Of a DNA stretch of 41,200 bases, positions 16,725 to 17,310 are shown piece by piece. Each line of letters begins with the position of its first letter. The first letter of the stretch is position 1. Made by a program: the position numbers and the translations under genes. The notes beneath the pieces are model-generated. The model had not been told where the DNA came from. It searched no databases and worked only from the letters and a program-made list of their open reading frames with translations. Origin of the DNA: a virus; IMG/VR virus record IMGVR_UViG_3300045598_000011; one strand, given 5' to 3'.

Positions 16725-16737
16725 AAAGTGGTATATA

Positions 16738-17310
16738 AGGTAGTACCAATCGGGGTACTAAGAGGGGATTAAACAATCCTTGAAAATGCGATATATTGGT
16801 ATTGTGCCAGAGATGGCATAGAACCTTTCTGTTCCGATGGTCTTTCAAATTTGTTGGAAATGGAATCCTTTCAAGACGATTGTTTAATTTAGTCATACTT
16901 TAATTTCTAGGCTTGCATGCGCAAGAAAAAATATTCGCGAATTGCAAAGCGACTTTATACCTACTAAGCAAGGAAACTTGCTTTTTTATACCGTATAAGA
17001 TGGCAAATGATTACTTCCGTAAACCTTAAACCTAATCGCTCCAATATTGATCATTTGCGAGGCGGTGCGATTCCGCCTTACGGTGTTACTATCTGGAAGA
17101 CACGACAGATAGTTGGAAGGTCCCAGGCGGGCTTGCTGCTAACTTTGATTTGAACGATCCACCAGCTGTTAGCAGCATGCAAAAAGTGGTGCGAGTCCAC
17201 TACCTATCCTTTGCCAGCGATGGCATTATAAAAAAATAATTTGGATTGCATAATCCTTTGCATATATTATCCTTCCGGCATGGTGTTCCTTATCAACGCC
17301 GGCGGGTTTT
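16738..17310 (+). ncRNA. Candidate large structured non-coding RNA (ROOL/GOLLD-class or novel); boundaries approximate
   Basis: ~570 nt with no credible ORF. An extended -10 TGgTATATA (16729-16737) sits just after the arpU stop. At least nine hairpins were read directly, two of them T-arm-like. It abuts a tRNA gene. Confidence 0.35.
17241..17268 (+). promoter_or_regulatory. Candidate promoter upstream of the tRNA
   Basis: TTGGAT (17241-17246), 16-nt spacer, TATATT (17263-17268), about 40 nt before the tRNA 5' end. Confidence 0.45.

Follow-up and report, generated by a model that had tools for sequence, protein, structure and literature searches.

The viral sequence IMGVR_UViG_3300045598_000011 (41,200 nt, referred to below as the window) holds a gap between the stop of a gene for an ArpU-family late transcriptional activator (position 16724) and a tRNA gene, and the question raised by this locus is what a prophage encodes in the intervening positions 16725-17310. 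A preliminary description, prepared from the nucleotide sequence, saw in it a candidate for a large ornate non-coding RNA of the ROOL or GOLLD type, or a new one. We find that the locus is a conserved, folded non-coding RNA of Limosilactobacillus prophages, comprised of two tRNA-shaped modules and several hairpins placed before a real tRNA, and that no RNA family described so far, be it ROOL, GOLLD, or another, matches it. It is the second possibility, a new RNA, that agrees with our observations: the gap is non-coding, is conserved like the neighbouring gene, has helices with compensatory covariation, and lies next to a tRNA, identified by ARAGORN as tRNA-Ser(GCT), in a prophage.

The absence of a credible open reading frame (ORF), also part of that description, was borne out by comparison with relatives. 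Seventeen IMG/VR contigs encode the same upstream protein (95-100% identity), and in 7 of the 17 the ORF that overlaps the gap on the minus strand (16702-16896) is broken by frameshifts or stops, where the flanking arpU gene is 87-94% identical at the nucleotide level. The 64-aa product of this ORF has no Pfam or other family match, and the longest open stretches switch frame and strand among relatives, with no intact ORF conserved; the region is therefore non-coding, and a protein gene in the gap was ruled out by the disruption of the ORF and the lack of a Pfam match. The spacer itself is 81-96% identical to the window, as compared to 87-94% for arpU, and thus appears to be constrained like coding sequence. 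A more distant copy, in locus L170 (upstream protein 81% identical; alignment score 109 bits, versus ~700 for the close copies), supplies many of the informative substitutions, and the search for distant spacers by way of ArpU protein homologues led to only three clusters, one of which is L170.

The plus strand of 16725-17310 has a minimum free energy of -172.7 kcal/mol, compared with -148.0 ± 6.1 kcal/mol for dinucleotide shuffles (z = -4.0, with 0 of 100 shuffles as good); the corresponding value for the minus strand is z = -2.9. In the helices drawn by hand, G-U pairs outnumber A-C pairs on the plus strand (14 versus 5, and 11 versus 3), and the T-loops, the tRNA, and the terminator all have the plus orientation. 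The locus is conserved and folded as RNA on this strand. The helices backed by covariation are all local: the long-range pairs proposed by RNAalifold never vary and are thus without support, and neither a long-range helix nor a pseudoknot is supported, so that the single large ornate fold envisaged earlier was not recovered.

All of the hairpins previously listed were found at their positions by direct reading of the sequence, including two mimics of a tRNA T-arm at 17060-17078 and 17185-17201. The latter observation is correct and is the key to reading the locus, as these are the T-arms of two tRNA-like modules, TLS1 and TLS2 (Table 1), each of which is predicted to fold on its own into a cloverleaf-like shape and is directly trailed by a short hairpin. 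Among homologous spacers, compensatory changes occur in TLS2, in the T-arm of TLS1, and in the hairpin between the two modules (HP1).

The second module, TLS2, has a 7-bp acceptor stem with one bulged A (GGAAGGU/ACCUAUCC; 3' strand ACCU-A-UCC), a 3-bp mini D-arm (CCC-AGGY-GGG), a long variable arm (17132-17179) containing a 9-bp stem (GCTGCTAAC/GTTAGCAGC, 17135-17143/17168-17176), an AAAAA linker, and a T-arm with a 5-bp stem and a 7-nt loop (AGUGG-UGCGAGU-CCACU). The segment between its invariant flanks ranges from 33 to 56 nt. When the hand-drawn structure was applied to 21 diverse sequences, 97.5% of cells were paired and 10 of 26 pairs showed compensatory changes; the covariation score of 0.272 exceeds that of column shuffles (0.111, with 0 of 500 as high) and of controls in which the partner strand was slid (at most 0.128). 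A covariance model of this module (R1) gives 92.1 bits at TLS2, and its next best match in the window is the tRNA-Ser (14.4 bits), a match that runs through the acceptor and T-arm, the TLS2 acceptor being nearly that of tRNA-Ser.

The first module, TLS1, is formed by a 7-bp acceptor-like stem (16988-16994/17080-17086), a long arm (17003-17013/17048-17058), and a T-arm (17059-17079) with a stem of 6-7 bp (AGGCGG/CCGCCT) and the loop UGCGAUU; it has neither a D-arm nor an anticodon loop. The long arm has an 11-bp stem and a 34-nt loop in the window, and hardly any arm remains in some group-D copies. For the T-arm, which is carried by 28 of the 32 sequences compared, 94.6% of cells are paired and three of six pairs are compensatory, with a covariation score of 0.258 (0.096 for shuffles, 0 of 500 as high). 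The acceptor strands also vary together, occurring as AUACCGU/ACGGUGU, CCUAG/CUAGG, ACCGCAU/AUGCGGU, and AUGCGCCG/CGGUGCAU. In HP1, for which the evidence comprises an alignment of close relatives and direct reading across lineages, compensatory changes affect 5 of 8 pairs among close relatives (alignment columns 385-411), and L016, L170, and groups C and D have stems of wholly different sequence around a retained ACAC loop motif. A kissing interaction of the GACAC loop with GUGUU in the loop of the pre-tRNA hairpin was considered and rejected, as neither group C nor the alternative 3' end of group D retains it.

Comparison with the geometry of tRNA clarifies what these modules are. A 7-bp acceptor stacked on a 5-bp T-stem with a 7-nt T-loop is present in TLS2, and in TLS1 with an unpaired nucleotide between the two stems; an anticodon arm with a 5-bp stem and 7-nt loop is present in neither, and long arms that differ in length and sequence stand in its place. 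The modules share with tRNA genes and phage tRNA clusters the arrangement of acceptor and T-arm, the location, and the loop UGCGAGU, which also occurs in a real phage tRNA-Tyr, that of Lj965, and by analogy they are probably matured by RNase P and RNase Z as tRNAs are. They differ from tRNAs in that the anticodon loop is missing, the D-arm is reduced or absent, and the Rfam tRNA model and ARAGORN both pass over them in the window, where only 17310-17398 is accepted as a tRNA; lacking an anticodon loop and failing the tRNA models, TLS1 and TLS2 cannot decode. Run in D-armless mode or with its threshold relaxed, ARAGORN does call homologous modules in L172, L170, and L175.

At gathering thresholds, the 4227 families of Rfam 15 gave a sole match in the whole window, a DUF3800-I RNA far downstream of the gap. 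A permissive scan of 16500-17800 (E<=10) returned only the tRNA and noise, and the loci of seven relatives matched tRNA alone. ROOL, GOLLD, and every other Rfam family were thus rejected at either the gathering score or E<=10. A cryo-EM study took its ROOL and GOLLD profiles from Rfam (PMC12286853), which makes this negative family test a real one. ARAGORN called no transfer-messenger RNA (tmRNA) in the window, the nearest approach being an 18-bit partial match to a T-arm in L172 (gathering score 47), and the Rfam scans of the window gave no YrlA-type match. A megablast search of INPHARED found no close relatives among sequenced phages, with blastn matching only the tRNA, and neither Rfam 15 nor the searchable literature yielded a description of this RNA. 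We class it with the large structured RNAs that phages carry along with tRNAs, among which it is distinguished by an architecture of tRNA mimics.

A pattern combining the mini D-arm with the TLS2 T-loop was matched by 44 stretches of viral and 48 of metagenomic origin. Model R1 finds one copy per locus, with 92 matches of 76-96 bits among 94 sequences (the window and 93 loci); these represent 48 distinct sequences, and the two unmatched loci are chance matches to the pattern. The copies group as the window type, groups C and D, and three singletons. All types, from at least three prophage lineages, have in common a 3' core of TLS1, the GACAC hairpin, and TLS2, with differing 5' parts and tRNAs; a further tRNA-like module, with the canonical loop UUCGACU, is found in group D. 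In nine representative loci, covering all three lineages, an ArpU-like activator gene lies directly upstream; in groups C and D an ORF resembling the terminase small subunit follows further downstream, with various accessory genes between. Every copy with examined flanks, these nine and the window's lineage, sits after an ArpU-family gene and before terS. Among one-genome-per-species representatives, scanned with the window-type T-arm pattern (which is unable to match groups C and D), the window-type RNA occurs only in Limosilactobacillus mucosae DSM 13345, where it is located on the minus strand of NZ_AZEQ01000005 (L161:5764-6336), and the other 32 matches are chance or tRNA. A loose pattern with two T-loops yielded mostly unrelated tRNA arrays of large phages, and nhmmer returned the known family and two truncated copies. 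In each of two isolate genomes, a prophage with the window-type RNA is accompanied by a second prophage with the group-D RNA (IMGVR_UViG_2630968579_000003, L013/L085, with _000004, L172; IMGVR_UViG_2654588121_000002, L012/L025, with _000001, L192).

Table 1. Features of the activator-to-terminator region, in window coordinates.
Feature	Position	Strand	Basis or remark
Gene for ArpU-family late transcriptional activator	16233-16724	+	Directly upstream in every lineage examined
Candidate ArpU-binding zone and late promoter (DNA level)	16725-16803		Repeats, palindrome, promoter scan
Hairpin GGATT-AAAC-AATCC	16766-16779		Direct reading; not conserved
5' hairpin GUGCCA-GAGA-UGGCAU, GNRA loop	16804-16819	+	Kept with other stems elsewhere; previously listed as 16805-16818
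Lineage-specific 5' domain, weak local G-U-rich helices	16820-16965	+	Predicted structure
Terminator-like hairpin AAGCAAG-GAAA-CUUGCUU with U-run, GNRA loop	16966-16987	+	Terminator scan
TLS1, tRNA-like module 1	16988-17086	+	Folds so on its own; T-arm covariation
HP1, hairpin ACUAUCUG-GAAGACACGA-CAGAUAGU	17088-17113	+	Loop motif GACAC (17101-17105) conserved
TLS2, tRNA-like module 2	17115-17209	+	Covariation; covariance model R1
Hairpin UGCCA-GCGA-UGGCA, GNRA loop	17212-17225	+	Comparison with relatives
A/T-rich linker with hairpin (17243-17256) and -10-like box (~17263-17270)	17226-17270	+	Sequence comparison
Pre-tRNA hairpin CCU-CCGGC ... GCCGG-GGG, loop motif UUCCUUAUCAAC	17271-17306	+	Stem covaries; previously listed as 17275-17302
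tRNA-Ser(GCT), swappable tRNA slot	17310-17398	+	ARAGORN; Rfam tRNA 45.6 bits
Post-tRNA hairpin UGCC-UACG-GGCA (17399-17410) and further predicted structure	17399-17508	+	Fold predicted
Intrinsic terminator GACGGG-UUUC-GGCCCGUC with U-run	17509-17535	+	Terminator scan; conserved in relatives

The protein encoded upstream scores 41.0 bits against TIGR01637 (phage_arpU), just under the cut-off of 43.1, with 62 bits for its group-D homologue, and it matches the "transcriptional activator" family phrog_248 at E = 2e-24 (range ~1e-22 to 1e-31, with one protein per lineage). Downstream, the window encodes terS (phrog_7344, E = 7e-46), and with an ArpU gene on one side and terS on the other the locus has the gene order of Ltr/ArpU late control, in which the protein binds repeats just distal to its own gene and activates the late promoter that precedes terS (Quiles-Puchalt et al., 2013, PMC3753634). 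Here too, the ltr (arpU) gene is followed by a candidate repeat block, a putative late promoter, and terS. The phages in which it was described have short intergenic promoter DNA at this place, whereas here ~0.75 kb of structured RNA, tRNA, and terminator precede the first late ORF.

The first part of the gap is probably a DNA-level control region, as judged from its sequence features, and the candidate for both the ArpU-binding zone and the late promoter. It contains a perfect palindrome, TAGTACC-N6-GGTACTA (16741-16760; 7-nt arms 16741-16747/16754-16760), which encloses the hairpin AGTACC-AATCGG-GGTACT reported before at 16742-16759. The palindrome arms are invariant among relatives and the centre is variable, and because the arms never vary, covariation gives no support for RNA pairing either way. 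Direct repeats are present in the window (TGGTAT at 16729 and 16797; CTTGAAAA twice), and group C has four TAGG repeats in its control zone. The extended -10 element proposed in the preliminary description (TGGTATATA, 16729-16737) is present, but its TG is replaced by GG in L010, L016, and L017; likewise, the hairpin at 16766-16779 exists in the window but is destroyed in a subgroup of relatives (L002/L003/L004/L011/L015). The promoter scan reported TAAACA-16-TATATT at 16770-16797. In all lineages a -10-like hexamer (TATATT, TAAATT, TACAAT, or AATAAT) stands 1-2 nt before GGTAYYGTG, a motif that runs on into the 5' hairpin and that is abutted by the arpU stop codon in group D. The sequence TATATTG-N-TATTGTG (window 16792-16806; variants TAAATTGTTATCGTC and TATATTGATAGTGTC), followed by a hairpin, recurs after the activator gene in distant phages (L251 ~3483-3500, L252 ~3543-3560, L249 ~3553-3570, and L253 ~3601-3620), and is a candidate for the ArpU-dependent late promoter and start site.

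The RNA itself probably starts at the 5' hairpin, the stem of which is kept by other sequences elsewhere: GUGAUA-GAAA-UAUCAC/U in group D, GUGAUA-UAAA-UAUCAU in L194, and GUGCC-AGAA-AGGCAU in L170. The domain that follows is present only in the window type, L016, and L170, with other sequence at this place in groups C and D; it shows little covariation, comparative depth is poor, and its fold is a prediction. The stem of the terminator-like hairpin before TLS1 is likewise maintained by different sequences (GAGCGG/CCGCUU, CGGGC/GCCCG, and GAAAAGC/GCUUUUC), and the U-run after it is not conserved (UUGUUAU, UUAU).

On the 3' side of TLS2, the second GNRA-loop hairpin varies within the GNRA consensus (GAAA, GAGA, GCGA, GGGA, and GCAA) and is replaced by AGCCGGU..ACCGGC in L170. 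In the linker, the small hairpin is missing in L172 and group C, and the -10-like box, which reads CATATAAT in many relatives and TGTATAAT in group C, is a possible internal promoter for the tRNA. The stem of the pre-tRNA hairpin occurs as CCGGC/GCCGG, UUGGC/GCCAA, and CACCGG/CCGGUG around the constant loop motif. The slot that follows (compared in the window, L001-L017, L172, L175, and L194) is occupied, between near-identical flanks, by tRNA-Ser(GCT), tRNA-Tyr(GTA), tRNA-Asn(GTT), or, in approximately half of the relatives, by tRNA-shaped elements with 4-nt, 8-nt, duplicated, or degenerate anticodon loops, which ARAGORN misses or calls without an anticodon; on this comparison of sequences, the slot keeps a tRNA shape and not a particular decoding capacity. 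In the window, the T-loop of the tRNA-Ser (T-arm 17373-17389) reads TCCGAAT, with C at the psi55 position, and relatives with the same tRNA all have TTCGAAT. Downstream of the tRNA, 17399-17508 is 83-97% identical in relatives, and the terminator is what we infer to be the end of the RNA/tRNA unit. Since the ~20 nt between this terminator and the next ORF (start near 17555) leave no room for a promoter, the late genes seem to depend on transcripts reading through from upstream. A promoter sequence that would overlap this terminator (TTGACG-17-TTTATT, 17506-17534) was set aside as a weak match that is absent from the promoter scan list. Positions 17555-17979, from the terminator to terS, are an accessory-gene hotspot with differing genes among relatives (L185, oriented, 10283-11740; L194, oriented, 10167-11682; L201 8421-9590; and L170 4405-6661, the last with ParB_N-like and TAGT-like genes).

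We also looked behind the activator genes of other phages. A tblastn search with the group-D activator identified 21 Lactobacillus phage records (29-39% identity), and the post-activator spacers of seven of them (Lj965, phiJB, phiadh, CV244, phi jlb1, Lj928, and vB_Lga_AB1) were examined. These are free of annotated ORFs for 0.3-1.4 kb, apart from one short minus-strand coding sequence in vB_Lga_AB1, and match no Rfam family but tRNA. They contain 17 T-arm-like hairpins in 6.3 kb, compared with one in 38 kb of the remaining loci and none on the minus strand, and only 6 of the 17 fall within tRNAs called by ARAGORN. In Lj965, four tRNAs follow the activator gene. In phiJB, phiadh, and vB_Lga_AB1, an uninterrupted stem of 10-12 bp ends in the loop UUCGACU, as a tRNA minihelix would. 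These elements and the window RNA are not homologues, and R1 matches there only the T-arm of the Lj965 tRNA-Tyr (UGCGAGU). With similar elements at the same position in phages of L. gasseri and L. johnsonii and in phiJB, the comparison suggests that tRNA-shaped elements recur behind late activator genes. Unannotated orphan T-arms are located at L250:3540-3570 (phiJB), L251:3554-3584 (phiadh), and L256:3533-3559 (vB_Lga_AB1), with further ones at L249:4057-4075, L253:3766-4555, and L254:3847-3863. Lj965, phi jlb1, and Lj928 share an unannotated stretch of ~170 nt (..GAGCGT..AAGAGCTGG..GGACCGC..CACAATTTGGAA..; L249:3900-4080, L253:3930-4100, and L254:3720-3870) which ends in an orphan T-arm and a hairpin and has no Rfam match.

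For the window locus, the reading that we favour, with little more than even confidence, is that ~16804-17535 constitutes a non-coding unit at the head of the late region, a tRNA-shaped array that is processed into mimics acting in trans. The RNA would be transcribed from an ArpU-controlled late promoter just upstream of 16804, as the first product or leader of late transcription; most transcripts would stop at the terminator, and read-through would feed the late genes. An acceptor stacked on a T-arm is a minimal substrate of RNase P. The tRNA and the tRNA-like modules could accordingly be recognised by RNase P and RNase Z, which would cut the precursor into stable pieces, namely tRNA mimics that lack an anticodon, hairpins whose loop motifs are fixed, and the tRNA as cargo. 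The freed mimics may then act in trans on factors that bind tRNA, most likely as decoys or competitors for tRNA-directed enzymes or defence nucleases of the host late in infection, with punctuation for the processing and stability of the late transcript as a close second role.

Several points weigh against this reading. TLS1 has an unpaired nucleotide between the T-stem and the 3' strand of the acceptor and is without a D-arm, which leaves its recognition by RNase P and RNase Z no more than plausible, and in the window both the Rfam tRNA model (E<=10) and ARAGORN with a relaxed threshold failed to report TLS1 or TLS2. We infer from the sequence where transcription starts, where the RNA ends, and where it would be processed, and the hairpin at 16966-16987 together with the box at ~17263-17270 could split the region into two or three transcripts. 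The decoy role is a guess, as nothing computed ties the modules to a target. Finally, the full-length form was found, with the window-type T-arm pattern, in one species representative only (L. mucosae), and its known distribution is narrow.

The alternatives account for parts of the same evidence. A divergent member of ROOL or GOLLD, which would be a single ornate RNA assembling into a multimeric cage, is invited by the context, since an RNA of ~0.5-0.6 kb adjacent to a tRNA in a Lactobacillales prophage is typical of these families (PMC5737381; PMC12286853). ROOL averages 581 nt and resembles the window RNA, which lies in a prophage late region directly 5' of tRNA-Ser, in size, in its occurrence in prophages of Lactobacillales near tRNAs, and in having no known function (Weinberg et al., 2017, PMC5737381). 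GOLLD likewise occurs in phages near tRNAs, to which it is sometimes covalently linked, has a conserved 3' and a variable 5' part, as seen here, and increases in expression late in infection (PMC12286853), which fits the position of the window RNA behind a late activator gene. Nevertheless, the window RNA matches the model of neither; it differs from ROOL in being built of local helices and two tRNA-shaped junctions with a module content that changes by lineage, and from GOLLD in its length (~0.5 kb to the tRNA and 0.73 kb to the terminator, many GOLLD RNAs exceeding 800 nt), its T-loop modules, and the lack of evidence for a globular fold or oligomer. No multistem junction beyond the tRNA-like ones is supported, nor is a pseudoknot or long-range helix. 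To our knowledge, T-loop modules are not a described feature of ROOL or GOLLD, which we count against membership as well, and altogether we regard it as scarcely credible; a cage or oligomer of a similar kind is neither supported nor excluded. Decay of a phage tRNA cluster, leaving functionless pseudo-tRNAs in a young locus, would agree with the tRNA clusters that related phages hold here (four tRNAs in Lj965), with the near identity of the acceptors of TLS2 and the adjacent tRNA-Ser, and with the often degenerate tRNA slot. It is nonetheless quite improbable: compensatory changes maintain helices in lineages with unrelated stem sequences, the T-loops, mini D-arm, and several hairpin loops are invariant while the "anticodon" arms are free to vary in sequence and length, conservation of the spacer equals that of coding DNA, and clean minihelices of 10-12 bp in other phages would be unexpected from random deletion.

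An explanation in which the element acts in cis, as a late-operon leader controlling read-through of the terminators (by attenuation or antitermination) or late mRNA stability, with the tRNA-like shapes serving only as RNase P/Z punctuation, is one that we consider unlikely. The location between the ArpU-controlled promoter zone and the late genes, the strong terminator ~20 nt before a first late ORF that has no room for its own promoter, the second terminator-like hairpin (16966-16987), and the hairpin behind each tRNA-like module, as expected of processed 3' trailers, are all in its favour, but no alternative antiterminator/terminator pairings were found, the differing moron genes between the terminator and terS leave the RNA untied to any one downstream gene, and the invariant loop motifs (GACAC and UUCCUUAUCAAC) suggest binding partners over mere cleavage signals. 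A function at the level of DNA, through ArpU operators or a pac, cos, or other packaging site, is plausible for 16725-16803 only, where the palindrome and direct repeats resemble a protein-binding or promoter zone and fit the Ltr model (PMC3753634). For 16804-17309 it is extremely improbable, given the compensatory pairing with G-U pairs on the plus strand, the GNRA and T-loop motifs (which are strand-specific RNA motifs), the orientation shared by these elements with the tRNA and terminator, and the 17 plus-strand T-arm-like hairpins in the spacers of other phages, as opposed to none on the minus strand of the whole loci.

Extending the preferred reading of an array of trans-acting mimics beyond this family leads to a wider proposition, which we put forward tentatively and think unlikely to hold in full: that temperate phages of Lactobacillaceae open late transcription with a class of RNAs made of anticodon-less tRNA mimics, which would titrate tRNA-directed host factors. 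The mimics would take the form of T-loop modules or minihelices, every one with a hairpin as its partner, and would be freed by host tRNA-processing enzymes, and their targets during virion production might be anticodon or acceptor nucleases of anti-phage defence, or enzymes of tRNA modification or CCA addition. The L. mucosae RNA would then be the best-conserved example, with possible analogues in Lj965, phi jlb1, Lj928, phiJB, phiadh, and vB_Lga_AB1.

There are precedents for several parts of this arrangement. The tRNA cluster of phage T4 encodes small stable RNAs within it, and in MALAT1 mascRNA and the TMER transcripts of murine gammaherpesvirus 68 a tRNA-shaped element is followed by hairpins, with host tRNA-processing enzymes defining the ends of the neighbouring RNA. 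Those systems belong to eukaryotes or their viruses, whereas the window RNA lies in the late region of a bacteriophage and its processing is putative. The tRNA-like domain of tmRNA and the YrlA RNA similarly mimic an acceptor and T-arm, with a long helix replacing the anticodon arm; unlike tmRNA, the window RNA has no ORF for a tag peptide. The functions of ROOL and GOLLD have been unknown for more than a decade, and this locus adds to them an unrelated third RNA from a comparable setting, one with readable parts: anticodon-less tRNA-shaped modules, fixed loop motifs, a swappable tRNA, and a defined position behind the late activator. The association of such RNAs with tRNAs may be due to mimicry of tRNA and not to decoding, and given that T-arm elements without annotation also lie between the activator gene and terS in several sequenced Lactobacillus phages, the phenomenon may extend beyond one family. 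A cultivable lysogen that carries the RNA exists in L. mucosae DSM 13345.

The DUF3800-I RNA elsewhere in the window (RF02969, plus strand, 40071-40181; 94.9 bits, E = 5e-14) is full-length, has a terminator, and overlaps the 5' end of the ORF listed at 40161-40889.

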